IMG/VR virus record: IMGVR_UViG_3300035210_000190
Length of the DNA stretch: 64,000 nucleotides
Strand: one strand, 5' to 3'
From: a virus
Lineage: Duplodnaviria > Heunggongvirae > Uroviricota > Caudoviricetes
Both the position numbers and the translations under genes were made by a program. This document shows, piece by piece, positions 1 to 12,049 of the stretch. How positions within the stretch are numbered: the first letter of the stretch is position 1; every line of letters starts with the position of its first letter. Below the pieces are notes generated by a model. The model did not search any database. It was given only the letters and a program-made list of their open reading frames with translations, and had not been told where the DNA came from.

Positions 1-399
1 GTGGTCACATTTGAAGTGACAGATTATGAGCAATGTAAAGCATTAGGCACAACCTCTTGGTGCATTGTTCGTGACGAAGATTATTTCGAACAGTATGTGA
101 CAGACAGAAAAAACAATCAATACATTATTTACGACTTCAATAAATTATCAACAGACATTGAGTCAATGGTTGGGTTTACGGTTGATAAAACTGGTAACAT
201 TTATGCTGAACATTGGAAGGATGATTCTTCGATAGGCCACTACAACAAAGCAGACAGCCTTGTTGCTATCCAAACAGACACTATTTACAAAAATCAAAAG
301 CGTCACTCGTTATCAGAAGAAACTATTGCTGATATGAAAGATATTCTTGGTATTAAGGATATCAAACAAACTAAACCTTTACAGATGAGATTTTCATGA
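1..399 (+). CDS. Partial (5'-truncated) protein with G-x-T-S-W-C-I motif; paralog of the C-terminus of 4409..6256 (module gene A)
   Basis: VVTFEVTDYEQCKALGTTSWCIVRDEDY aligns with VVTFAVKTYEQCEALGSTSWCIVRDQDY; overlaps next start (ATGA). Confidence 0.85.
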   Translation: MVTFEVTDYEQCKALGTTSWCIVRDEDYFEQYVTDRKNNQYIIYDFNKLSTDIESMVGFTVDKTGNIYAEHWKDDSSIGHYNKADSLVAIQTDTIYKNQKRHSLSEETIADMKDILGIKDIKQTKPLQMRFS

Positions 400-1781
400 A
401 AAAAGCAACTAGCGAAGAATTTATAGACTTATTAAATGAGTTCAAGTCAAAAAACAACATTGAAGATAACCGCTTTGATTATTACGCCACTTTCAAGTTC
501 TACAAATCAACATTCCTTGATGATTTTTATGACATCTCATTGATTAAAACTGATTATGATGAACATCCTGTCATGATTGGTTATTCTACTCGTAATTTAT
601 TAGTTAAGGATGATTTAATCAATAAATTTACTGAGTTGGACTCTCCCTCTAGACCAGATAGTGTTCCCATTATTAAAGATAAACATATTGAACAAATACA
701 GGAACTCAAGAAGATATTGGATGACAGTCATAGCTTTAAAGAATTCGTAGAACCTGCATTCAAATTTTTAGATGACCATAACAATGCTTCCAAGCTTACC
801 AAAGGTGTTCCATCTATCAAAATTATAGAACTGTTTGATGGTTTAAAAGAGGCATTGAGTAAAGAAGTTGTCAATGAAACATCCCTTCGTCATTACCTTG
901 ACGGATTAATTGATCAGTTATCCACTTCATTATACATTGAGAAGGAACTCAGCACTTATCAGTTGACGCATTTATTTAGAATTAGGACTACGGAAGATCC
1001 TGACACCATTATGAATACTTTCTATGAACGCTTTGATAAATACTTCGATTTATTTAAAGTGCAGCAATCTTTGATTATTGGCAGGCTGTTAAACGCTGAA
1101 ACAGAAGACGAAGTGCTAAACAAACCATTGCTTAATCAGTTCATAGAAGAAGCCAAGCTAAAGCACCCAGAATGGTTTAAAACGTTTGATGAATCGTTAA
1201 CCCACTGTATGACCGATGATAACGCTATCAGGTTCTCAGGTGTGCCTTTGGCTGACGCTACGCCTGACTTTGACCTTATAGAGCCTAAATCGTTTATGGC
1301 GACTGCCTACCCAAGCTATGCTGATGGATATTCTTATATATCTCCTAGATTTATTGAAGCTGAATTAAACTTTGTTCATTTGTATGGGGACAATGTTTTC
1401 TTTAAAGCTTACTATCATAATCTTCACATAGAGAAAGAGGCTGCACTTACTTATTGTAAAGGTGTTGATTCTGATGTGGCCTTTTGTATTAAGAACTCAG
1501 ACAGAAAAAACTTCATATTGCCGGTACTGGATTACTTGGATAAGAATAACATTATTATCGATCTCTCAAAAAACAGCACTCTTTATCATTACATTAACAG
1601 GGAGGACTTAGTGGAACTTGTTACATCTGAGTATCCTAATCTTATTTTAATCCATCATGATTTAGGGTTTAAAAAAATAGGAGCCATTACTCAATCTAAA
1701 TCATTTGAGGAAGCATTAGACAACTATCATAAAGATAAGCTAACATTGATTAAACCACTCAAAAACAAACCTACATTTTAA
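396..1781 (+). CDS. Hypothetical protein, paralog of 6253..7680 (module gene B)
   Basis: Shared MKKATSxEF start, FDYYAT, PEWFKxFDxSL, YGDNxFFKxYYHNL, YPNLIL blocks; coupled to gene A. Confidence 0.9.
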   Translation: MKKATSEEFIDLLNEFKSKNNIEDNRFDYYATFKFYKSTFLDDFYDISLIKTDYDEHPVMIGYSTRNLLVKDDLINKFTELDSPSRPDSVPIIKDKHIEQIQELKKILDDSHSFKEFVEPAFKFLDDHNNASKLTKGVPSIKIIELFDGLKEALSKEVVNETSLRHYLDGLIDQLSTSLYIEKELSTYQLTHLFRIRTTEDPDTIMNTFYERFDKYFDLFKVQQSLIIGRLLNAETEDEVLNKPLLNQFIEEAKLKHPEWFKTFDESLTHCMTDDNAIRFSGVPLADATPDFDLIEPKSFMATAYPSYADGYSYISPRFIEAELNFVHLYGDNVFFKAYYHNLHIEKEAALTYCKGVDSDVAFCIKNSDRKNFILPVLDYLDKNNIIIDLSKNSTLYHYINREDLVELVTSEYPNLILIHHDLGFKKIGAITQSKSFEEALDNYHKDKLTLIKPLKNKPTF

Positions 1782-1795
1782 TTTATTAAAATGAT

Positions 1796-1823
1796 TTGAC
1801 AATGTTAAATTTTAATCTATAAT
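1796..1823 (+). promoter_or_regulatory. Sigma70-type promoter for toxin-immunity pair 1
   Basis: TTGACA-16 nt-TATAAT upstream of 1873. Confidence 0.7.
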
Positions 1824-1872
1824 TTTCATTGTTTTATGAGAATAAAACAATTTATTATAGGATTATAATTAT

Positions 1873-2415
1873 ATGGATATATTATCAAAGAAAAGTTTTT
1901 TTCGTATGCTTTTGTGTTTTTTATTTCTCTTTCCTATTGTTGGAGAAGCTGGTATACTTAAAAGTGGTATAAAAAGTATTGTTGTTACTAAAATTGTAAA
2001 AAAAGCAGCTAAGAAAGTAGCAGCAAAGCAAGCAGCAAGAACAGTTTCACCCATAATAAAGAATGAGTTAAATGTCGTCAGATATGGATCTAAAAAGAAT
2101 TTTCGTACTAGAGGTTTAGATTATCATCATATTCCATCTGCTAAACAAATGGAAGCTTATGGTGTAAAGGCGAAAGATGGTGTATCTGTTGGTATGGAGC
2201 ATGGAAGACACACATTAACAAGAACTCATGGTCATCTTAATAAAGATATTTTAATTAAAGGAGAAAAGCCAAGAGAAGCATTAGCAAGAGATATAAAAAA
2301 TCAAAGATCTATATATAGAAATGATAATCTTTATGATAAAAGTGTAAGAGAATCATTGAAAGAAACGATAAAACTAAATAAAGAATTACATCCAACTTTG
2401 TTTAAAAAACCATAG
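1873..2415 (+). CDS. Putative secreted His-Me finger (HNH-like) nuclease toxin
   Basis: Basic/hydrophobic signal peptide ending GEA|GI, Lys/Ala-rich linker, GLDYHHIPS...GVSVGMEHGRHTLTRTHG...LARDI motif resembling Rhs-type C-terminal nuclease toxins. Confidence 0.65.
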   Translation: MDILSKKSFFRMLLCFLFLFPIVGEAGILKSGIKSIVVTKIVKKAAKKVAAKQAARTVSPIIKNELNVVRYGSKKNFRTRGLDYHHIPSAKQMEAYGVKAKDGVSVGMEHGRHTLTRTHGHLNKDILIKGEKPREALARDIKNQRSIYRNDNLYDKSVRESLKETIKLNKELHPTLFKKP

Positions 2416-2422
2416 GTGATAT

Positions 2423-2857
2423 ATGAAGAAACCAAATGAAAAACAAATTAAAAAATATTTATTAAATGTAGATGAGCATTTTCAGGAGTTAATTGATGCT
2501 ATTGTATATTATGATTCAAATGAGATGGATGACTGGGCTACTGATATTATTGGAGCAATTGAGGAAAAATCTCTTGTTGAAACATTTGAATTACTATTAA
2601 GTGATTTAAAAAATAGAAAAAAAAGTGATTTTGATGCTTATTTTTATTGTACTCTTTGGTTGGCACTCATTAATGAGCAAGACGAAGAAATTACAAACAT
2701 GTTTATTCATGAAATTAAAGAAGAAAAAAATAAAGATCTTCAATGGTTTTTAAGTTATTCTCTTGAAAAAATGGAAAAAGATCCTGACCCTGATGCTGAT
2801 TTTTTTGACGTTGACACCGTTGCTTACATAAAAAATATTTTAGATCAATCTATTTAA
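2423..2857 (+). CDS. Putative cognate immunity protein
   Basis: Small acidic helical protein 7 nt downstream of the toxin ORF with similar AT-rich composition; inferred from position. Confidence 0.55.
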   Translation: MKKPNEKQIKKYLLNVDEHFQELIDAIVYYDSNEMDDWATDIIGAIEEKSLVETFELLLSDLKNRKKSDFDAYFYCTLWLALINEQDEEITNMFIHEIKEEKNKDLQWFLSYSLEKMEKDPDPDADFFDVDTVAYIKNILDQSI

Positions 2858-2917
2858 AAGTTAATGATTTATCTAGTGATTCATGATATAATACCTTTTC
2901 TAATGAAGAGGTTTTTT

Positions 2918-3319
2918 ATGAAATTTGAGCTAACTCCTGTGGATCAAGACATTGCTCCACGTTTTGAAATCACTATTGAATACATTCATGGGGCTACTGA
3001 CTATACTGTCCGTCATGAAACAGCTATTGTTCCTAGTGGAGATTTAAATGATCTCGAAAAATACATCTCTCGCTTTAATGAACTTAGAGATATGGTTGAA
3101 GCAAACCGATCAGACGGAGTTGAATATCCAGTAGAGTACAGAGGCGACTTTGAAGATTACTTCTCCAGTTTTGATGTTGACGGTCTTGATAATGTTTCCA
3201 TTGATTTAATTAATGATGAAACCAATGATGACTTTGATTGTTTTGCCCGAATGGCTATCAATAAAATTGTTTACTACAATGAACATGGTGTTAAGTTTGA
3301 TGTGAAGCAGACAGATTGA
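2918..3319 (+). CDS. Acidic hypothetical protein, paralog of 7789..8193 (module gene C)
   Basis: GAGG RBS before ATG 2918; MxFEL...PRFEI.I.Y.HG..D and YxExGxKF shared; leader CCTTTTCTAAxGAAGAGG also shared. Confidence 0.85.
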   Translation: MKFELTPVDQDIAPRFEITIEYIHGATDYTVRHETAIVPSGDLNDLEKYISRFNELRDMVEANRSDGVEYPVEYRGDFEDYFSSFDVDGLDNVSIDLINDETNDDFDCFARMAINKIVYYNEHGVKFDVKQTD

Positions 3320-3386
3320 CTTAGCAACTCAATTCAGTCTATAATGCCAGCAGTATTTTTACTATTAAAATGAAGGTAACGACATA

Positions 3387-4355
3387 ATGTTTGCAGACTA
3401 TATCGAAAATATTCAATACGCATCTTCTGATTACAGGAAGCGTGATCGATTTCTGGCTAAAAATGTCGTTATCCGACTTCCTTATTTGTCTCCACAGCAT
3501 TTTGTTGACTACTCCAAAAACCCTTCAAAGGTTGTAGAAGAATTAGAAGAATTTATGAAGCCTATTATAGAATCTTCTGGTACGTGTCTATTCTTCTCAG
3601 ATTTTATAAGTAAAGATTCTGTTTACACTATTTATAAGATAAAAAGAGAAAATTCGAGTGCTGCCCTTACAGATTTTCTTGAGGAAAGCTTTCAAACAGC
3701 TAAGCAGGATGATCTGATCATTCGATCACAATTGTCAGATTCTTTCGAAAAGATTTTTGATGGTTTATTTGTTGGAGAAACGTTTAAACAACGATTTCTG
3801 ACTGACTTAAAGACGAAAAGCGTTTCTACTGATTTTTCTATTTCAGGGTCTTTGGCACCTGATCGATTAATCAAAAAATCTGGTCATTATTTTGTTAATA
3901 TAAATATCAGGTTTACCCCAGAACATGAAGCTTTTTTAAGAAAAGTTTTAAATATCACCACCAATGTTGAACTCTTATATAGGGGTTATGTATACTTTAA
4001 ATCTGACTTCACTGTAAAAGAGTTTAAATTTAAATTGTTTTCAGCCACTGATCTTCATCGTGAACATTTTGAGTATTCTCGATCATCACCTACATATGGG
4101 TTTATTACCACTGAAAAAAAAGCAAAACCTTATGCCTACGATCAAAAGCCTAAATTATTTTTCAAGCACTTTACTCCTGATGAGTATAAATCCATCTTAT
4201 ATCAACTTCTAAAATTTCTGAATGATTCAGAAACGCTTGCTAAATATTCAGAATTATTGCCTGAACTGTATAGGCCGTCAGCCTATGACTTTTCCAGTCT
4301 ATCTATGGATGAGTTGGATACTCGTTTGATACTTCAAGACATGATTGACATTTAA
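3387..4355 (+). CDS. Hypothetical protein with C-terminal LPEL..SAYDF...DMIDI motif
   Basis: 322-aa ORF, upstream TATAAT and GAAGG RBS; C-terminus matches 13641..14393 and 20042..20737. Confidence 0.85.
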   Translation: MFADYIENIQYASSDYRKRDRFLAKNVVIRLPYLSPQHFVDYSKNPSKVVEELEEFMKPIIESSGTCLFFSDFISKDSVYTIYKIKRENSSAALTDFLEESFQTAKQDDLIIRSQLSDSFEKIFDGLFVGETFKQRFLTDLKTKSVSTDFSISGSLAPDRLIKKSGHYFVNINIRFTPEHEAFLRKVLNITTNVELLYRGYVYFKSDFTVKEFKFKLFSATDLHREHFEYSRSSPTYGFITTEKKAKPYAYDQKPKLFFKHFTPDEYKSILYQLLKFLNDSETLAKYSELLPELYRPSAYDFSSLSMDELDTRLILQDMIDI

Positions 4356-4408
4356 TAATTATATTTTTATGGTATACTATTATTAATTAATTTATTGTTT
4401 ATATATAT

Positions 4409-6256
4409 ATGGATTTGAAAGAAAGTTTAAAACAGATTACACACTTAGCCACTAGACTTGCACCCGATGGTTGGGAAGCTGTAAATTCTTATAATTTTTT
4501 ACATTATAACGAAATGACATTTATACCAGAGTTGAAAAAAAATAAAGCCAATAGAATATTAACTAATGTTCCAACTATAAAAGATACAATTGCTAAATTG
4601 TCTGGCTATGTTGACACCATCCTATCCACGGATGTATCTTCTCTAACTAGCGAATTTGATGTTGACCTTTATGCTTCAAAGGTTACACCAGATTCTTTTG
4701 AAAAAAACCACATTATGTTAATGACGGCTCTTCAAGATGAGGTAAATTCCGTATGGTCTGATTTTTATTATTCACAAATGGCCGGGTCTTATGAATTTAA
4801 TGAGGATATGTCGGAGACACTTGCTCAGCAAATCCAATCAATAAAAGAAATTTCAAAAAGAATTGAAAAACAATATGTTGAAGTCAATAAATTTTTAATG
4901 TTTAACTACACATTAACTAATCAATTAGGGATTTCCTTGCTTCATAAAGATGACAAATCTTATGTTGTTGACTCTATCGAAAATTATATAAAAAACAATA
5001 CTCCTGACATGAACAACTTAACGAAGTTATATGACGAATATACCGTTGCTAATCAGACATTCTTAGATACTGTTAAAGTTGAACTTACTAAAATCAATCC
5101 TTCAATGTTTATTACGAATGCAGATTTGTTTATAGAGACTTTAAATAAAAATAATGATACATCATCTGTTGAAGGTTTTCTTATTGAAAAAATGTTAACT
5201 GATGATTCTGTTTATACGTCTGTTGATTTCACTGCAGCACAAAAAATTAATAAAGTTGTATTGTTTGACGACGCCAGTATTGCGTACAAAAGGGATGGTC
5301 AATATCACACATTCAAGGATACTACATCATTGAAAGAGTTTATCAGTGACCTTCACAATGATGCTCTCGCTTATTTGTTAAGAAAGAAACCGAAGACAAT
5401 CAGTTTCTTCCAAGATAAGTTAAAAGAAGATGTAAGCTATAACAACTCCATTACTGCAGCTACTTCATTTTTAGATAACCACTCAGTTCTAAAACAATAT
5501 AATGTTGATTTGAATGCTTGGAAGGATAAAACATTTGAATCAATAGATGACGATATTAACCACATAGTCAACAAAAATAAAATAAAACAATTTGCATTTA
5601 GTATTCTTAGTGCTAAATATAAACATTTATTTAATGATATCACAGAGCCTCATTTTAAAGCCTTATATGACAACAATGTAACAACTAGTCAATTACAAAC
5701 ATTTGTGGGCAAAAAACTGGCTGCACTTGATTCTAATGAAGATGTCATTTCTATGTTGAGTGGAATACTTAATCATTTTGATGGATTTACACAAGAAGCC
5801 TTATCTGAAAAATTAGCGGCATTGGGTATAAATAAACTTCATGATGATAATAATGTTGTTACTTTTGCGGTTAAGACTTATGAGCAATGTGAAGCATTAG
5901 GTTCAACGTCTTGGTGTATTGTCAGAGATCAAGATTACTATGATCAGTATGTTACTGACCATCGTAATATTCAGTATATTCTGTATGACTTCAACAAAGC
6001 TTCAACTGATATTAATTCCATGATTGGGTTTACTGTTGATAAATCGGGTTCAATTTATGCTGAACATCTTAAAAATGATGACACTATTAATTCATATGAT
6101 AAATCAGATGAGCTTGAACATATACAAACAAATACTATTTATACGAATAGAAAACAACACAAACTATCAGAAGAGAAACTTTTTGAAATGGAAGAATCTC
6201 TTAATTTTAGAGATGTTAAAAAAGTAACTAAACCTTTAAAAATGAGAAATATATGA
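4409..6256 (+). CDS. Large hypothetical protein with C-terminal GSTSWCI domain (module gene A')
   Basis: 615-aa ORF; last ~135 aa homologous to 1..399. Confidence 0.9.
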   Translation: MDLKESLKQITHLATRLAPDGWEAVNSYNFLHYNEMTFIPELKKNKANRILTNVPTIKDTIAKLSGYVDTILSTDVSSLTSEFDVDLYASKVTPDSFEKNHIMLMTALQDEVNSVWSDFYYSQMAGSYEFNEDMSETLAQQIQSIKEISKRIEKQYVEVNKFLMFNYTLTNQLGISLLHKDDKSYVVDSIENYIKNNTPDMNNLTKLYDEYTVANQTFLDTVKVELTKINPSMFITNADLFIETLNKNNDTSSVEGFLIEKMLTDDSVYTSVDFTAAQKINKVVLFDDASIAYKRDGQYHTFKDTTSLKEFISDLHNDALAYLLRKKPKTISFFQDKLKEDVSYNNSITAATSFLDNHSVLKQYNVDLNAWKDKTFESIDDDINHIVNKNKIKQFAFSILSAKYKHLFNDITEPHFKALYDNNVTTSQLQTFVGKKLAALDSNEDVISMLSGILNHFDGFTQEALSEKLAALGINKLHDDNNVVTFAVKTYEQCEALGSTSWCIVRDQDYYDQYVTDHRNIQYILYDFNKASTDINSMIGFTVDKSGSIYAEHLKNDDTINSYDKSDELEHIQTNTIYTNRKQHKLSEEKLFEMEESLNFRDVKKVTKPLKMRNI

Positions 6257-7680
6257 AAAAAGCTACATCACAAGAATTCTTATCTTCATTAACAGATTTT
6301 AAATCAACACATGCTATCACTGATAGTAACTTTGATTATTACGCCACGATTAAATTTTGCCAATCTACTTTTCTCAACGATTATTATAATTTGTCTATTG
6401 TGAAAACAGATTCTGCAAAGCATCCTATTTTATTACAATATCATAACAAAAATTTTGTTGTAAAGCTGGATGATTCTATATTTTTTGAGTTACATAAAGG
6501 AGAAATCAATAATTCTGTACCTGTATTAAGAAAAGAAGATCATTTAAATGCCGAAAAAATGTTAGCTATTTTAAAAGGAAGCCATTCTTTTAAATCTTTT
6601 GTTGAGAACTTCAAACAAGAATATAGTCAGAATATTGATTCCTCCGATACTGACCGAATATCATATAGACTGTTAGCTTTCAATATTGCCAATACCCTTG
6701 AAAATTTGGAAACAACGTTAAAGGAAGCTCGACCAAAAGAAAATACTGTTAAGCATCATTTTGAGCAATTAAAAGAACAGTTAGCTTCTGAAATATTATT
6801 GGGTTCCGATTTTAGTGTCTACCAAATGTCTCAGAAGTTTAGATCTTTTGTGGTTGTTACTGATGAAGGGTATTCTGGGCCATATGAAACAAGTTATGAT
6901 AAATTAATGGACAGTTACTATACGTCTCTTGATCAATATTTTGATTTATTTAAATTTCAGCAAGTTTTGAAAACAGGTCTATTACTTAATGCTAAAACAG
7001 AAGAAGAGTTATTAAACACACCAGTGTTAAACGAATTCATAGATAGTCTAAAATCAAGTTATCCAGAATGGTTTAAATCTTTTGATGATTCCTTGGTTCA
7101 TTCTGTAATAGATGATAATGGTATTAGAGCAATGGGTGTTTCTTTGTTAGAAGCTACTGCTGACTTCGATCTATTAAGTTCTAAATCTTTTGTAATATCC
7201 GCTTATCCTACCTATACGGATGGTTATACACACATCTCAGGCCACTTTATGCAATCTGAAACCAATAGTGTTCATATATATGGTGATAACATATTTTTCA
7301 AACCTTATTATCACAATTTAACTATTATTGATAAAGCTGATTTGAAAATTTGCACTTATATTCAATCTGATATTGCTTTTGCTATACCTGATGAAAAGAA
7401 AATTGATTATCTTTTACCTGTGTTAGATTACTTCGAAAAAAATCAAATTGTCCTTGATTTAGATGATAGTAATTGTTCATTCTTATATCATATAAGAAAA
7501 GATGAACTACATAAACTTGTTCAAGAACAATATCCTAATCTTATATTGTTGAATGGTGATATAGACATGAAAAAATCTATAGAAATCCACCATTCGAAAA
7601 ACTTTAAAGAAGCGTTTAAAATCTATAAACAAGATGACACCCCGACTCCAAAAAAGACAAAATCAAAAAACGCCTTGTAA
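6253..7680 (+). CDS. Hypothetical protein, paralog of 396..1781 (module gene B')
   Basis: Full-length similarity to 396..1781; overlapping start/stop; hairpin AAAAACGCC..GGTGTTTTT at the stop. Confidence 0.9.
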   Translation: MKKATSQEFLSSLTDFKSTHAITDSNFDYYATIKFCQSTFLNDYYNLSIVKTDSAKHPILLQYHNKNFVVKLDDSIFFELHKGEINNSVPVLRKEDHLNAEKMLAILKGSHSFKSFVENFKQEYSQNIDSSDTDRISYRLLAFNIANTLENLETTLKEARPKENTVKHHFEQLKEQLASEILLGSDFSVYQMSQKFRSFVVVTDEGYSGPYETSYDKLMDSYYTSLDQYFDLFKFQQVLKTGLLLNAKTEEELLNTPVLNEFIDSLKSSYPEWFKSFDDSLVHSVIDDNGIRAMGVSLLEATADFDLLSSKSFVISAYPTYTDGYTHISGHFMQSETNSVHIYGDNIFFKPYYHNLTIIDKADLKICTYIQSDIAFAIPDEKKIDYLLPVLDYFEKNQIVLDLDDSNCSFLYHIRKDELHKLVQEQYPNLILLNGDIDMKKSIEIHHSKNFKEAFKIYKQDDTPTPKKTKSKNAL

Positions 7681-7788
7681 GGTGTTTTTTTATAGATAAC
7701 ATTTTAATTTCAGCTATAAATGTTAACAATAACTTGTATTTTTGACTGTATTTTGGTATAATCCCTTTTCTAACGAAGAGGCTTTTTT

Positions 7789-8193
7789 ATGCAATTTGAA
7801 TTGAAATCCATTGTAAAAAATGTGCTACCACGCTTTGAAATTGAAGTTGATTATGAGCATGGTGATTCCGATCACAGCAATTCAAGCTGGACAGAAATTC
7901 GTAGTGGTGAATTGACGGATCTCGAAAAGTACATTCTTTTATTTGATGAACTCAAAACTGCCATTCGTGAAAACAGACAGCAAAGTTCTCCATTTCCCGA
8001 TAAATTTTTGGCTGATATCAACAACTGGGAATTTAACTTTCAGGTTGATATTGATGGTGATCCTGTCTATATTGAAATTGAACGTGATGCCACTGCTCAT
8101 GAATCCATGTTGTATTTTGCAGACATGACAATGATGCAAGTTTTATTTTATGATGAAAAAGGCGAAAAATTTCAAGTTTACTGGCGAGATTGA
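7789..8193 (+). CDS. Acidic hypothetical protein, paralog of 2918..3319 (module gene C')
   Basis: Own promoter (GGTATAAT) and GAGG RBS; shared motifs. Confidence 0.85.
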   Translation: MQFELKSIVKNVLPRFEIEVDYEHGDSDHSNSSWTEIRSGELTDLEKYILLFDELKTAIRENRQQSSPFPDKFLADINNWEFNFQVDIDGDPVYIEIERDATAHESMLYFADMTMMQVLFYDEKGEKFQVYWRD

Positions 8194-8213
8194 ATTTCAT
8201 TTTGAATTTCTTA

Positions 8214-8233
8214 AAGGTCACTTCGGTGGCCTT
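8214..8233 (+). terminator. Intrinsic terminator hairpin, identical to the copy at 33253..33272
   Basis: AAGGTCAC-TTCG-GTGGCCTT. Confidence 0.75.
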
Positions 8234-8336
8234 ATTTGTTTTTCAAATAAGATCAACGGTCGTTTTTTCTGCCTTATTTAATTGACCAAATTCCAGAATT
8301 TTGTTATCATCGAGCAAATTATTAGAGGTGTCAATT

Positions 8337-9113
8337 ATGCAAACAAACAAGAGAGCGTCATTTTATACTGATATTTCAAAGCAGCAGGAGTTCATAGCCC
8401 GGTTGAATGCCATTCTAAATGAACCTGACAGCAGTATTTCAAACTGTTACCTCGCACGTTCGACATCTGATCGTTATTGTTTGTTTATTACGCCTTTTAA
8501 TGCTCAGTATGACTTTACGACCATCACGTTTGATTTTTGCAATTTCTTTTCAAATTCTACGGTCAAAGATGACGACTTCTACAGTCGGTATGTGGATCAA
8601 GGTCTTTCAAAAACGGATGTTGATCGCCTCAGTGATTTGCTGGATGAATTCGCCTTTGAAAACTTCTATGAAGGTCTGTTCTTTGCTTCTAAGTTCTTTG
8701 AGCCTGAATTGAACCCTTTAAAGGTTAATAGCCTCTATTTCAAGTTTACTGCCAATGAAGAAGATCGCCTTGAATTGATTGATGGTAAGAAACTTGAAAA
8801 ACATTATTCTGTGACTACCCGTCAAAATCTGGCTTATGAATTGAGCCGAGATAAAAGTATTGATTTGAATGCTAACCTCATCAAGTGTAATACTTACAGT
8901 TTCTCACAATACAAAAAATTGGATTTCTGCCTCCGGGAAATCAAGAAAACTAATGGCAACTATCCAACTGTAGAAAAATTGGTTGTTGTTCAGTATCGTG
9001 ACCTTGAATACTACAACAGCTATATTCAGAGTGTTTTTGCACTTGTTGATGATGAGTTGGATGAAGTTGACATTAAAGATATTGTTAATACGGCAGAAGT
9101 AGAAGAAGACTAA
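8337..9113 (+). CDS. Hypothetical protein
   Basis: TTGACC-17-TATCAT promoter (8282..8310); GAGGTG RBS favours ATG 8337. Confidence 0.8.
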   Translation: MQTNKRASFYTDISKQQEFIARLNAILNEPDSSISNCYLARSTSDRYCLFITPFNAQYDFTTITFDFCNFFSNSTVKDDDFYSRYVDQGLSKTDVDRLSDLLDEFAFENFYEGLFFASKFFEPELNPLKVNSLYFKFTANEEDRLELIDGKKLEKHYSVTTRQNLAYELSRDKSIDLNANLIKCNTYSFSQYKKLDFCLREIKKTNGNYPTVEKLVVVQYRDLEYYNSYIQSVFALVDDELDEVDIKDIVNTAEVEED

Positions 9114-9159
9114 TATTACTTATAGGAGATACACATGATAACGAGAGGACTACTCAGAG

Positions 9160-9498
9160 ATGAACCTTAAAAATGATTTTTACTACACAGTGCTTAAAGA
9201 TACAGAAAATGACATTGTTCTTCATATGGTGACCAAAAAGACATGGGATACTGAAGCTCTTATGGATCATCCTGATGTCATGGAAGAATATTCTAGACAA
9301 TTTACGTTGCCGGGATACATTTTCGAAGTATCCGGTATGAATGGTGATGATTGTCTTGATACCATTGACCGTGTGGATGGAAAACCAGTCGATGGTCAGC
9401 AATTGTTGAATGATTTGAAATCGAATGGCTATACAGTCAATGATGATTTTGGTAAACATCTTGAACATTCATCCGATGGGTATTTTGTAAAGGTGTAA
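9160..9498 (+). CDS. Hypothetical acidic protein
   Basis: 112-aa ORF followed by a terminator. Confidence 0.75.
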   Translation: MNLKNDFYYTVLKDTENDIVLHMVTKKTWDTEALMDHPDVMEEYSRQFTLPGYIFEVSGMNGDDCLDTIDRVDGKPVDGQQLLNDLKSNGYTVNDDFGKHLEHSSDGYFVKV

Positions 9499-9522
9499 AA
9501 AAGAGGCTTCGGCCTCTTTTTT
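9497..9522. terminator. Bidirectional intrinsic terminator (recurrent GAGGC-TTCG-GCCTC family)
   Basis: AAAAAAGAGGC-TTCG-GCCTCTTTTTT between convergent genes. Confidence 0.9.
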
Positions 9523-9865
9523 AATGCCCACTTGTTTTTGAGAACATGTTGATGATGATGACACCCGTTACGATGAACGCTATACCCGTCATCGCTGGCA
9601 CATCTATTTTCTGGTTAAATACCACTAGTCCTATCAATGCAGTTGCCACAATACCTACACCAGCCCATATGGCGTAAGCAATGCCCAATGGAACGACTTT
9701 AAGTGATTGTGATAGACAATATAAGGAAGTCACAAAGAAGACTGCCATAAAGGCCGTAGGAATGAGTTTGCTGAACTGTTCGCTTTTGTTTAATAAGGTG
9801 GTTCCTATAAGTTCGCAGATAATTGCCGAAGTTAAATACAGGTATGCTACATAGATTGGGTTCAT
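9521..9865 (-). CDS. emrE: Small multidrug resistance (SMR) transporter, EmrE/QacE-like
   Basis: 114 aa, four hydrophobic segments, membrane Glu in AIICELIGT, PLGIAYAIWAGVG signature; own TTGACA-16-TATACT promoter on the minus strand. Confidence 0.9.
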   Translation of the reverse strand: MNPIYVAYLYLTSAIICELIGTTLLNKSEQFSKLIPTAFMAVFFVTSLYCLSQSLKVVPLGIAYAIWAGVGIVATALIGLVVFNQKIDVPAMTGIAFIVTGVIIINMFSKTSGH

Positions 9866-9980
9866 GATAATTTGTCTAAAGTTTAATCATAATAGTATAT
9901 ATTTTGCTAAAATATTGTCAAATACCACTTTACTTTTTATTTCATTTATGGTAAAATTATGAAACCTATTTGGAGGCTTT

Positions 9981-10788
9981 ATGTTAAGGAAAACAATATC
10001 TAAGTTTTTAGTTTTATTTTTATCTTTTACTTTATTATTTTCATGTTTTTCAGTAGAAGCTGGCATAGTATCGAGAGTTGTAACAATCAAGGTTGTTCAA
10101 AAAATTCTTCCAAGCTTAATTAAAAACTATGGAAAAAAAGTTGGTAGTCATGCGGAAGATGTTGTAATTAATTACATTAAGAAAAATCCAAAAAAACAAC
10201 AACAAGGTCTTTGATTCTATTGATAACTATGTAAAGAAAAATCCACTTTACGCTCAAAATGCAGCTATGTTAAAAAATAAAATAACTCAAATAACGCCTG
10301 CTTTGGCTAAACAAAAAATAACAATACCGAAAAATGGTAAATGGTCTGGTGATGCTGGTAATTCAAATTTTTGGCCTAATAAAGTTCCATCTAAATCTAA
10401 GCATAATTTAGATGATTTACAAAGATTAGTAGGTAAAGATGGAATTAAATTTGAAAAAGGTTATCCAGATTTTACTGCATATAGAAAAGGTCATGTTAAT
10501 GTTCCAAATATGACAGGGGAACATGCAAAAGATGTTTCAAAGGCGGCAAAAGAATTTGTTCAGAACAAACAATTTAAAAATAAAAAAGCTGCAAAAGATT
10601 ATGCAACTAAACATGATTTAGCATGGCACCATGAACCAGATGGGAAAACTATGTCTTTAGTTCCAAGGATTGTTCATGACAATGTTAAACATCATGGTGG
10701 TGCTGATGCTTTGAGATCAGCAGTAAAAGCCAAGAAAGCTGCAGCTAGAGCAGCAAAAAAAGCAGCAAAATTAAAAAAGGTGCCCTAA
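9981..10788 (+). pseudogene. Secreted WHH-family (HNH/EndoVII) nuclease toxin split by a one-base frameshift
   Basis: Signal peptide ending VEA|GI (ORF 9981..10214); frame open from 10168 encodes GKWSGDAGNS..GYPDF..LAWHHEPDGKTMSLVP..HDNVKHHGG; removing one A from the A7 run at 10190..10196 fuses them into 268 aa. Confidence 0.8.
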
Positions 10789-10789
10789 A

Positions 10790-11263
10790 ATGATTAAAAA
10801 ATATTTTGAGATTACAGTTAAAAATAAAGCTTTAGGTAAGTTGTCTTTTTATTTTTATTTACTAGATAAACCATATAAGAATGTTATCGCAGAAGATGAT
10901 TTTGGAAATAAAATAATAAATGACGATTCAGGTATTTTACTTTATGTTCATGATGCTGATGATGGCGTTGACTATATAAAATTATTTGATAATTTAGAAC
11001 TTTTCTATGAGAAAACTAAATTTCATGAGAACGATAAAAGATTTGAAGATGATGACGAACCATTAAAATATAATGAATATAATCCAGAAGATATTGAACC
11101 ATGTTCTATTTATATTAGTGAATTTATAAAGACACTAGGAATAAAAAGACTTGTAACAAAGTATAAAGAAGGATCTTATTACAATATATCACAAGCTTAT
11201 ATTGATGGTTCAATAACAAAGGATGAATTTATATTGTTGTCTAATTTAGATATCATAAGATAA
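10790..11263 (+). CDS. Putative SUKH/SMI1-KNR4-like immunity protein
   Basis: Starts 1 nt after the toxin stop; IAEDDFGN...SGILLYVHD resembles the SUKH core. Confidence 0.6.
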   Translation: MIKKYFEITVKNKALGKLSFYFYLLDKPYKNVIAEDDFGNKIINDDSGILLYVHDADDGVDYIKLFDNLELFYEKTKFHENDKRFEDDDEPLKYNEYNPEDIEPCSIYISEFIKTLGIKRLVTKYKEGSYYNISQAYIDGSITKDEFILLSNLDIIR

Positions 11264-11441
11264 CATGTAGTTTGTATTAAGGCGATGTTACTTGTCATCT
11301 TTTCTATTGCCTTAATTTTGTAGTTCCTGTTAAATATATCTTCAATTTATAGACAGGTGAAGACTAGTTAACCACTGCGAATGTAATTCAACAATGCCTT
11401 CAATGGCTCTGTTCATTATCAAAGATGCCGAAGCCTCTTTT

Positions 11442-11945
11442 TTATAAGTTTCCTAATTCTTTACTTGATTCAATTTCTATTTGTTCTTTTGTCCCCATCT
11501 CTTTTATGGAATCATCATCTAAATTTATTCTAATTGAATCGTCCAATAATCCACCACTGCAGGAAGTCGTTAAAAGTTTATCACCAGATTCTATTGTGTA
11601 ATAATCTTTCATAAGTCCATCTTCTTTTTTTAATTCACCATATTTCTTTGATAATATACCAGCAACAATATCTAGTTCGTCAGGACAATATTTATCTGTT
11701 TTTTTTGTTGTCGTTATGTTGTATATCTTTTTACTTGTTGGTGTATATTCAACTTCTGCTGTTTTGAAGCCTTTAAAATCTATTCCATAAATAGCTTTAT
11801 TTTCTTCTGGCATGTCTCGTATGAAATTTGATTGTTCTTTATTTACTACGCTACCAAGTTCTAATCCAAATATTTTATTTATATCCTCTGCATATGCAGT
11901 TTGTGTTAATATTATCATTGATGTCAAAACAATTCTTTTTATCAT
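11442..11945 (-). CDS. Secreted/periplasmic protein, paralog of 17871..18377
   Basis: Signal peptide ending AYA; IFxLELGS, GF....YTPT..KIYNI, AGILSKxYG and a two-Cys pattern shared. Confidence 0.85.
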   Translation of the reverse strand: MIKRIVLTSMIILTQTAYAEDINKIFGLELGSVVNKEQSNFIRDMPEENKAIYGIDFKGFKTAEVEYTPTSKKIYNITTTKKTDKYCPDELDIVAGILSKKYGELKKEDGLMKDYYTIESGDKLLTTSCSGGLLDDSIRINLDDDSIKEMGTKEQIEIESSKELGNL

Positions 11946-12049
11946 ATTATAAAATAAAGTTAATTAGACATATTTTAATATTTATACATTAAATGTCAAT
12001 TTTATTTATTTTAAGTTTTAAACCTATAGTAATTGAGGCAAAACAAACT

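Follow-up and report, generated by a model that had tools for sequence, protein, structure and literature searches.

The stretch of DNA analysed here, hereafter the window, comprises 64,000 nucleotides of the IMG/VR virus record IMGVR_UViG_3300035210_000190 and carries two compact gene pairs in which a gene for a putative nuclease toxin precedes a gene for a putative immunity protein (Table 1). We refer to the toxin and immunity genes of cassette 1 as T1 and I1 and to those of cassette 2 as T2 and I2, and use L-numbers for related contigs. Both pre-toxins are predicted from their sequences to consist of a cleavable signal peptide, a Lys-rich segment of ~30 residues and a swappable nuclease end, either a TseN-type domain or one of two kinds of WHH domain, and both toxins are very basic (isoelectric point (pI) ~10.2). 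An earlier sequence-only reading of the window had described signal-peptide nuclease fusions at 1873 and 9981, each with a different small acidic gene behind it. The downstream genes are as described, and the fusion at 1873 stands, T1 and I1 both appearing intact in this genome; the 'WHH toxin' at 9981, however, proved to be two open reading frames (ORFs) parted by one extra A, with a WHH domain that is real by Pfam.

The signal peptide of T1 has a basic n-region, a 12-residue hydrophobic core, Pro at -6 and the residues G-E-A/G at -3 to +1 (the slash marks the predicted cleavage site). Leaders of the family generally combine a basic n-region with a hydrophobic core of 12-15 residues; positions -3 and -1 hold small residues, Pro or Gly usually occupies one of the positions -4 to -6, and the endings are GEA/G, VEA/G, AEA/G, ANA/G, SNA/G, GQC/G and SEA/K. 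The -3/-1 pattern is kept in leaders that are only 24-31% identical to that of T1, and diverged relatives place A, G, S or V at -3 and A or C at -1. This is the signature of signal peptidase I substrates, from which export is predicted. The leaders of T1 and T2 are related to each other (hhalign probability 93.6%, E 2e-7). Within the window a profile built on the leader matched the T1 and T2 ORFs only, leaving other signal-peptide proteins unmatched (best other E 0.78), and among 1.84 billion representative proteins it recovered six clusters, all belonging to this toxin family. The leader module is specific and rare. Such a profile search for further variants had been suggested by the sequence-only reading; it succeeded among the representative proteins and found no copy of the module in IMG/VR or in known phages. 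Two other interpretations of the region were set aside: LFSC in the T2 leader had suggested a lipoprotein signal, which was rejected since P0010, L014 and L110 do not keep the Cys, and a TonB box, suggested by SIVVT/RVVTI at the mature N-terminus, was dropped because the motif is lost in more distant members.

The mature N-termini had also been called cationic and amphipathic. Their positive charge is confirmed, the net value over 30 residues being +9 in T1 and +6 to +9 across the family. Amphipathicity holds in part: a pattern of hydrophobic (h) and polar (p) residues, hh-pp-hh-p-hhhh-pp-hh-pp, is conserved across the family with a period of ~4-4.5 residues and a peak at 80 degrees, but at the canonical 100 degrees comparison with shuffled sequences gave p 0.58 for T1, a marginal p 0.03 for T2 and p 0.15 for the family profile. 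AlphaFold (AF2) draws a helix over residues 30-54 of T1 at a low pLDDT of 43-56. A K/A-rich tail of histone-H1-like composition, resembling the K/A-rich stretch of the T1 N-terminal segment, lies at the C-terminus of T2 (10720-10788). The idea that such stretches are position-specific devices for trafficking or uptake is weakened because T2 has one at its C-terminus; they may instead bind DNA or anionic envelopes, and the tail of T2 may bind DNA or another polyanion.

The nuclease end of T1 is recognisable by its predicted fold. An AF2 model built from eight family members is confident over residues 60-180 (block pLDDT 86-97 except in one loop, overall about 90), and its toxin domain superposes on the C-terminal DNase domain of TseN (9j9w_B) with Z 12.0, 19% identity and a root-mean-square deviation of 3.0 Å over 116 of ~120 residues, the runner-up scoring Z 4.2. 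Foldseek gave the same pairing a probability of 1.00 (E 0.016). Among AlphaFold DB clusters the domain finds cellular matches down to E 8.5e-10, including the C-termini of S-type pyocins, a filamentous-haemagglutinin entry and an LHH-domain protein, and in the ESM Atlas it reaches TM 0.72-0.80 against the C-termini of S-pyocins, Rhs and PT-HINT proteins; Tox-SHH, AHH and LHH proteins are among its neighbours in these two collections. Residues invariant in the T1 family (H85, H86, P88, S89, R112, H113, T116, R117, T118 and a PREALARD block) are compatible with a His-Me-type site. The fold similarity agrees with the 'His-Me-like' label given to T1 by the sequence-only reading, but no Pfam model matches any of the eight family members, even at E 10. 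Likewise, neither T1 nor its seven relatives match a PHROG model, the T1 profile retrieves no PDB sequence at E 10, and a fold search of BFVD viral proteins returned nothing below E 0.4.

The nuclease end of T2 was identified at the level of sequence. T2 is present in the window as ORFs of 77 and 173 amino acids (aa) in different frames (9981-10214 and 10267-10788), the first preceded by a GGAGG ribosome-binding site. The 173-aa ORF matches PF14414 (WHH; 3.3e-11, 43.2 bits against a cut-off of 25.1) and PF12639 (Colicin-DNase; 1.5e-11, 45.4 bits against a cut-off of 25), and among solved structures it lies closest to the WHH toxin RhsP (8bd1_A, E 1.4e-9), sharing the motif WHH..DGKTM..P..H. 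The sibling contig L011 (JGI 3300034691) encodes an intact T2 of 268 aa, P0009. Over 1,838 bases the two sequences are 99.95% identical and differ solely where the window has CAACAACAAGG and L011 has CAACAACAGG. Because the split form was assembled independently in at least ten contigs from seven samples, it is a real and common allele, not a slip of assembly, and as read from the sequence T2 is inactivated in this genome by a one-base insertion, with I2 retained. A run of seven A residues (10190-10196) lies 8 bases upstream of the insertion, and loss of one A in the mRNA would bring back the T2 frame with four residues changed; on paper, transcriptional slippage on this run could restore T2.

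Comparison with related contigs points to a leader that has been joined to different nuclease ends. The gene for P0008, found in L001 and L002, resembles T1 from the promoter through the leader to about codon 45, with 84% of nucleotides identical and the similarity ending at window position 2006, and P0008 is 77% identical to the T1 protein (P0002) over residues 1-56. It ends in a WHH domain that is unrelated to the T1 end and only 29% identical to the T2 domain. The T1 promoter and leader are found at 84-86% nucleotide identity in L001 and L016, again as far as position 2006, and the recombination junction with alternative toxin ends lies near codon 45 of T1 (nucleotide 2006). L016 holds a truncated copy of a P0008-type gene and then a 278-aa ORF. 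The sequence-only reading had proposed a conserved N-terminus with swappable toxin and immunity ends, and the leader was indeed found with another toxin domain, the WHH domain of P0008; co-divergence, immunity-only arrays and cassette mobility speak for the same proposal.

Toxin and immunity genes have diverged together between flanks that have changed far less. Between the window and L003, T1 is 63% identical (57% past residue 45) and I1 56%, and the flanking proteins are 91-97% identical. For cassette 2 the corresponding values are 66% for T2 and 69% for I2 in L012, and 55% and 50% in L014, with flanks at 81-99%. The cassettes also occupy different places. The T2-I2 unit spans exactly the interval from the -35 hexamer to the I2 stop codon, and in L012 it sits between homologs of window 15063 and 15089, away from the transporter gene that adjoins it in the window. 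T1-I1 is an insertion between a 461-aa and a 133-aa gene, relative to a paralogous 475/134-aa module at 6253-8193 in which the corresponding site is 7680-7789. No flanking repeats or target duplications were seen around the cassettes, which look like phage morons in their sequence organisation.

The downstream genes are candidate immunity genes. Every family member is followed by a homologous small acidic gene, and each toxin type has its own downstream family: I1, always directly downstream of T1-family toxins; I2; and a type of 266-278 aa. I1 is probably all-alpha and HEAT-like, its leads to HEAT and DUF5071 being weak. I2 is possibly a divergent SUKH-type protein; one of its seven paralogs matched Pfam SMI1_KNR4 at E 0.002, below the gathering score, and its model resembles Syd (Z 4.8), RhsPI (Z 4.4) and SMI1/KNR4 (Z 3.9) over residues 1-87 only. 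The 266-278-aa ORFs (L016 2638-3474, L109 3948-4772, L014 3915-4715) follow the short WHH toxin of P0008 type and are orphans elsewhere; they carry no Pfam annotation on record and probably form a third immunity family. A complex prediction for T1 (60-180) with I1 scored 0.44 and one control 0.31, which counts neither way.

Extra and orphan immunity genes accumulate in sibling elements. In L014, T2 is followed by four I2 paralogs and an orphan 266-aa gene of the third type, L110 has T2 and two I2 copies, and L109 has two I1 alleles, a 274-aa gene and five I2 paralogs with no toxin within 20 kb. Because siblings keep antidotes to toxins they do not make, the toxin seems to arrive from outside. 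In a sample of 401 Moraxellaceae genomes the I1 profile had no match and the I2 profile a single marginal one (L108, G148:C13:43330-43575, E 5.4e-4). Homologs of I2 form 16 clusters in a collection of 5.8 billion proteins, all annotated as 'hypothetical protein' at most and several located on the same giant contigs. Since immunity genes pile up in siblings and were not found in the Moraxellaceae sample of 401 genomes, cells with one variant of the element seem to contend mainly with cells that carry another.

On this evidence we read the two loci as autonomous, moron-like cassettes, each with a sigma-70-type promoter, a pre-toxin and an immunity gene, and place them in a small, lineage-restricted family whose polymorphic DNase toxins depend on Sec and are released against non-immune neighbours; we give this interpretation a probability of roughly 0.7. 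Three features of polymorphic toxins can be read from the family's sequences: a conserved leader with alternative, unrelated toxin ends; a downstream immunity-type gene that varies with the toxin end; and orphan or extra immunity genes together with cassette turnover. Comparison of these sequences reveals the domain architecture, the swap of ends, the co-divergence, the mobility of the cassettes and the immunity arrays. From them we infer a course of export, cleavage, neutralisation, release, target entry and DNase activity. Sec would carry the unfolded pre-toxin to the periplasm of its Gram-negative, possibly Acinetobacter-like host, and the leader would then be removed. Whatever toxin folded in the cytoplasm or came back to it would be bound and blocked by the acidic cytoplasmic protein encoded downstream. 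Toxin set free by lysis, by vesicles or by a secretion system of the host would then damage the DNA of neighbours that have no matching immunity gene.

Table 1 Features of the two cassettes and contigs carrying syntenic relatives of the window
Feature	Position	Strand	Description
T1 promoter	1796..1823	+	TTGACA-16-TATAAT, 12/12 match; left edge of the conserved 5' handle
Palindrome	1828..1851	+	ATTGTTTTAT-GAGA-ATAAAACAAT; T1 leader region, just downstream of the -10 box; perfect 10-bp stem
T1	1873-2415	+	Intact 180-aa ORF
T1 signal peptide	1873..1950	+	26 aa; predicted signal peptidase I cleavage after G-E-A
T1 Lys-rich segment	1951..2055	+	aa 27-61; mature N-terminus
T1 toxin domain	2056..2415	+	aa 62-180; predicted TseN-type DNase fold
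I1	2423..2857	+	Putative immunity protein for T1; 144 aa, pI 4.3, without signal peptide; starts 8 bases after T1
T2 promoter	9929..9957	+	TTTACT-17-TAAAAT with upstream TG; left boundary of the cassette exactly at the -35 element
T2 5' fragment (77-aa ORF)	9981..10214	+	Signal peptide (27 aa, predicted cleavage after V-E-A), cationic segment, start of linker; premature TGA
T2 3' fragment	10168..10788	+	+1 frame, first ATG 10267; linker, WHH/Colicin-DNase domain, K/A-rich C-terminal tail
Insertion in T2	10204..10205	+	One base (extra A), frameshifting T2: CAACAACA[A]GG; from alignment with intact L011
I2	10790..11263	+	Putative immunity protein for T2; 157 aa, pI 4.7, without signal peptide
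L109	JGI 3300034157 contig Ga0370506_000001		1,917,244 bp; syntenic relative, same sample series as the window's strain
L110	ENA ERZ27281805 k141_522346		1,843,594 bp; syntenic relative

Several observations weigh against this interpretation of the cassettes. At ~154 aa the mature protein is too small to hold colicin-type domains for receptor binding and translocation and offers no evident means of crossing two target membranes, and Sec export alone would strand a toxin in the periplasm of a diderm cell; next to the cassettes no gene for release or lysis was seen. In most of the populations sampled T2 is broken, so that this weapon at least is not in current use. Polymorphism is shallow, with only two toxin folds in three subtypes, both of them nucleases, on a leader represented by six clusters. 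A virus that kills its potential hosts also gains little, and the ecological logic hinges on the lifestyle of the element. A more ambitious form of the interpretation would make the mature toxins self-delivering 'minimal bacteriocins', in which the ~30-residue cationic peptide replaces import domains and carries the DNase across the envelope of cells that hold rival element variants. Uptake through the cationic segment had been proposed by the sequence-only reading; the composition of the segment suggests it, and we consider the proposal unlikely. If true, such warfare between elements would explain why immunity genes build up in sibling elements and not in host chromosomes.

Other uses of a leader-bearing nuclease have to be set beside the preferred one of release against non-immune neighbours. 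Following the logic of barnase/barstar or NucA/NuiA, an exported nuclease with an intracellular inhibitor could destroy incoming transforming DNA or the DNA of superinfecting phages, or scavenge nucleotides, the partner protecting the producer before export. The signal peptide and the acidic cytoplasmic partner would be just as expected here, no receptor-binding or translocation domain can be recognised in the mature toxin, K/A-rich tails at either end (N-terminus of T1, C-terminus of T2) suggest binding of DNA or polyanions over trafficking, and the family of an Acinetobacter-like host is naturally competent. We nevertheless judge it unlikely, because the inhibitors diverge as fast as the nucleases between flanks that remain 81-99% identical, siblings keep two to five divergent inhibitor paralogs without a nuclease gene, and the nuclease ends have been swapped on one leader. 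If the leader were instead an uncleaved membrane anchor, a nuclease tethered at the inner membrane might degrade host or rival DNA, with the downstream protein acting as a timing regulator. Nucleases that attack host DNA are common in large phages, and the Lys after the hydrophobic stretch favours a cytoplasmic C-terminal part under the positive-inside rule. Yet a transmembrane helix, and hence an anchor, needs more than the 12-15 residues of the h-regions, a helix-breaker at -4 to -6 and small residues at -3 and -1 persist in leaders only 24-31% identical to that of T1, and the immunity-only arrays imply a toxin that comes from outside, all of which makes tethering quite improbable.

The cassettes might also be selfish, either as addiction (toxin-antitoxin) modules that stabilise a giant element or as free-standing homing endonucleases of HNH type. 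They are compact, promoter-bearing units at different intergenic sites in related genomes, and phage homing endonucleases use the same His-Me/HNH kind of nuclease. But a signal peptide has no role in either version, homing endonucleases come without inhibitor genes, and the relatives of the T1 fold are warheads of pyocin, Rhs and CdiA type, not homing enzymes; with no match among BFVD viral proteins and no flanking repeats or target duplications, we rate this explanation as very improbable.

As a class, Sec/type II secretion system polymorphic toxins with lineage-specific domains after a signal peptide have been described (Zhang et al. 2012, PMC3482391). The closest parallel is Neisseria MafB/MafI (Jamet et al. 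2015, PMC4287609; PMC3482391), with which the cassettes share a signal peptide, a conserved N-terminal region, variable toxin ends, an immunity gene directly downstream, arrays of extra immunity genes and rapid divergence of the pairs. In MafB-class toxins, however, the conserved region is a globular domain such as DUF1020, whereas here it is a Lys-rich, non-globular segment of ~30 residues. The mature toxins described here measure ~150-240 aa and are carried by a giant phage-like element in place of a bacterial chromosome; the units move as morons, each under its own promoter, and only nuclease ends have been seen so far.

The nuclease domains themselves have relatives with other means of delivery. 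TseN is a proven DNase and a type VI secretion system (T6SS) effector of Acidovorax citrulli, blocked by TsiN, which is encoded downstream (PDB 9J9W; PMC12574953). The T1 domain has the same predicted fold, but T1 has a predicted Sec leader where TseN relies for delivery on the T6SS, with VgrG, PAAR and a chaperone; the immunity proteins differ too, TsiN being of alpha/beta type with a seven-stranded sheet and I1 apparently all-alpha. Similarly, T2 keeps the WHH motif residues of RhsP and the I2 model weakly resembles RhsPI (PDB 8BD1), but RhsP is the tip of a large T6SS-delivered Rhs protein and T2 is a 268-aa protein with a Sec leader, frameshifted in the window. Nuclease colicins and S-pyocins also pair a small basic DNase warhead with an acidic immunity protein on mobile elements, and the T1 fold occurs at the C-terminus of S-pyocins. 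These bacteriocins differ in having no signal peptide, in being released bound to their immunity protein and in having large receptor-binding and translocation domains; T1 has a Sec-type leader and only ~35 mature residues before its nuclease domain, and no Pfam match to Pyocin_S or to a translocation domain was found.

Phages are already known to carry polymorphic toxins, namely the MuF family (PMC5576092), Bxa of Bacteroides prophages (PMC11699363) and the ESX-dependent cassettes of Mycobacterium abscessus prophages (PMC8092301). They resemble the cassettes in their swappable C-terminal ends and toxin-immunity modules, but depend on a head-associated MuF domain or on WXG/ESX signals and belong to temperate phages of ordinary size, in place of the Sec leader and short cationic segment seen here; neither toxin (180 and 268 aa) matches MuF in Pfam or PHROG. 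Polymorphic toxins come up only in passing in a survey comparing jumbo phages, in which we found no mention of secreted toxin-immunity pairs (PMC7824862). The class as a whole is already described; the new elements are a minimal, cationic leader module, packaging in the manner of morons, a giant carrier and the predicted use of the TseN fold in Sec export. If the interpretation is true, warfare in the style of bacteriocins extends to very large phage-like elements, which trade and inactivate compact toxin/immunity morons equipped with promoters while siblings collect antidotes, and contests between related elements join the known contests between huge phages and their hosts. The recently defined TseN DNase fold would be extended to a Sec-exported setting. 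A predicted mature DNase of 154 aa and a putative inhibitor of 144 aa from an unrecognised family also make a small, laboratory-friendly system, suited to asking how little protein is needed for a nuclease to be exported and possibly imported into another cell.

The T1 cassette carries a possible control element. The stem of the palindrome just behind its promoter survives in L001 and L016, with T:A replaced symmetrically by A:T, and in L003 around a larger loop. Possible roles of the palindrome are an operator for a repressor, of the kind found in SOS-controlled colicin genes, or a hairpin in the 5' untranslated region.

The carrier itself is a candidate phage-like element of uncommon size. 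Two independent assemblies contain syntenic relatives of the window (L109 and L110), and the window's own protein P0002 lies on a contig of 834,842 bp. The largest phage genomes we know of are ~0.7 Mb, far below these relatives at 1.84-1.92 Mb, and the carrier may differ from, or greatly exceed, a 'jumbo phage'. Only 4 of ~40 scanned ORFs of the window have Pfam families. Positions 1-12000 had no megablast match among plasmids or phages, the T1 family has no confirmed relative among IMG/VR viral contigs, the toxin family was not found in deposited phages, and PHROGs yielded nothing useful for the toxins, immunity proteins or neighbours. The sole exception to these blanks is the C-terminal ~130 aa of a 615-aa protein, containing a TSWCI motif, which weakly matches the uncultured phages LR756502 and LR745206, both larger than 630 kb. 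A tblastn search of phages with a protease and an M17 peptidase from the window was uninformative on the identity of the element.

We assume a Gram-negative host, possibly Acinetobacter-like, because of the homologs of a gene for an EmrE-type SMR transporter adjoining the T2 cassette (9521-9865, minus strand) and because one source sample was wastewater. The nearest cellular homologs of this transporter are overwhelmingly from Acinetobacter, at 55-61% identity, which hints at such a host. The gene is 97-99% conserved among related elements and is unusual cargo.

The neighbourhood of the cassettes has further structure. Paralogous modules at 1-3319 and 4409-8193 each contain a 615-aa gene, a 461/475-aa gene and an acidic 133/134-aa gene, and the 133-aa gene most likely starts at 2918 rather than 2864. 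Convergent with the T2-I2 cassette, a conserved 167-aa protein (11442-11945, minus strand) with a clear signal peptide and only a weak match to DUF1797 is 87% identical in L014.

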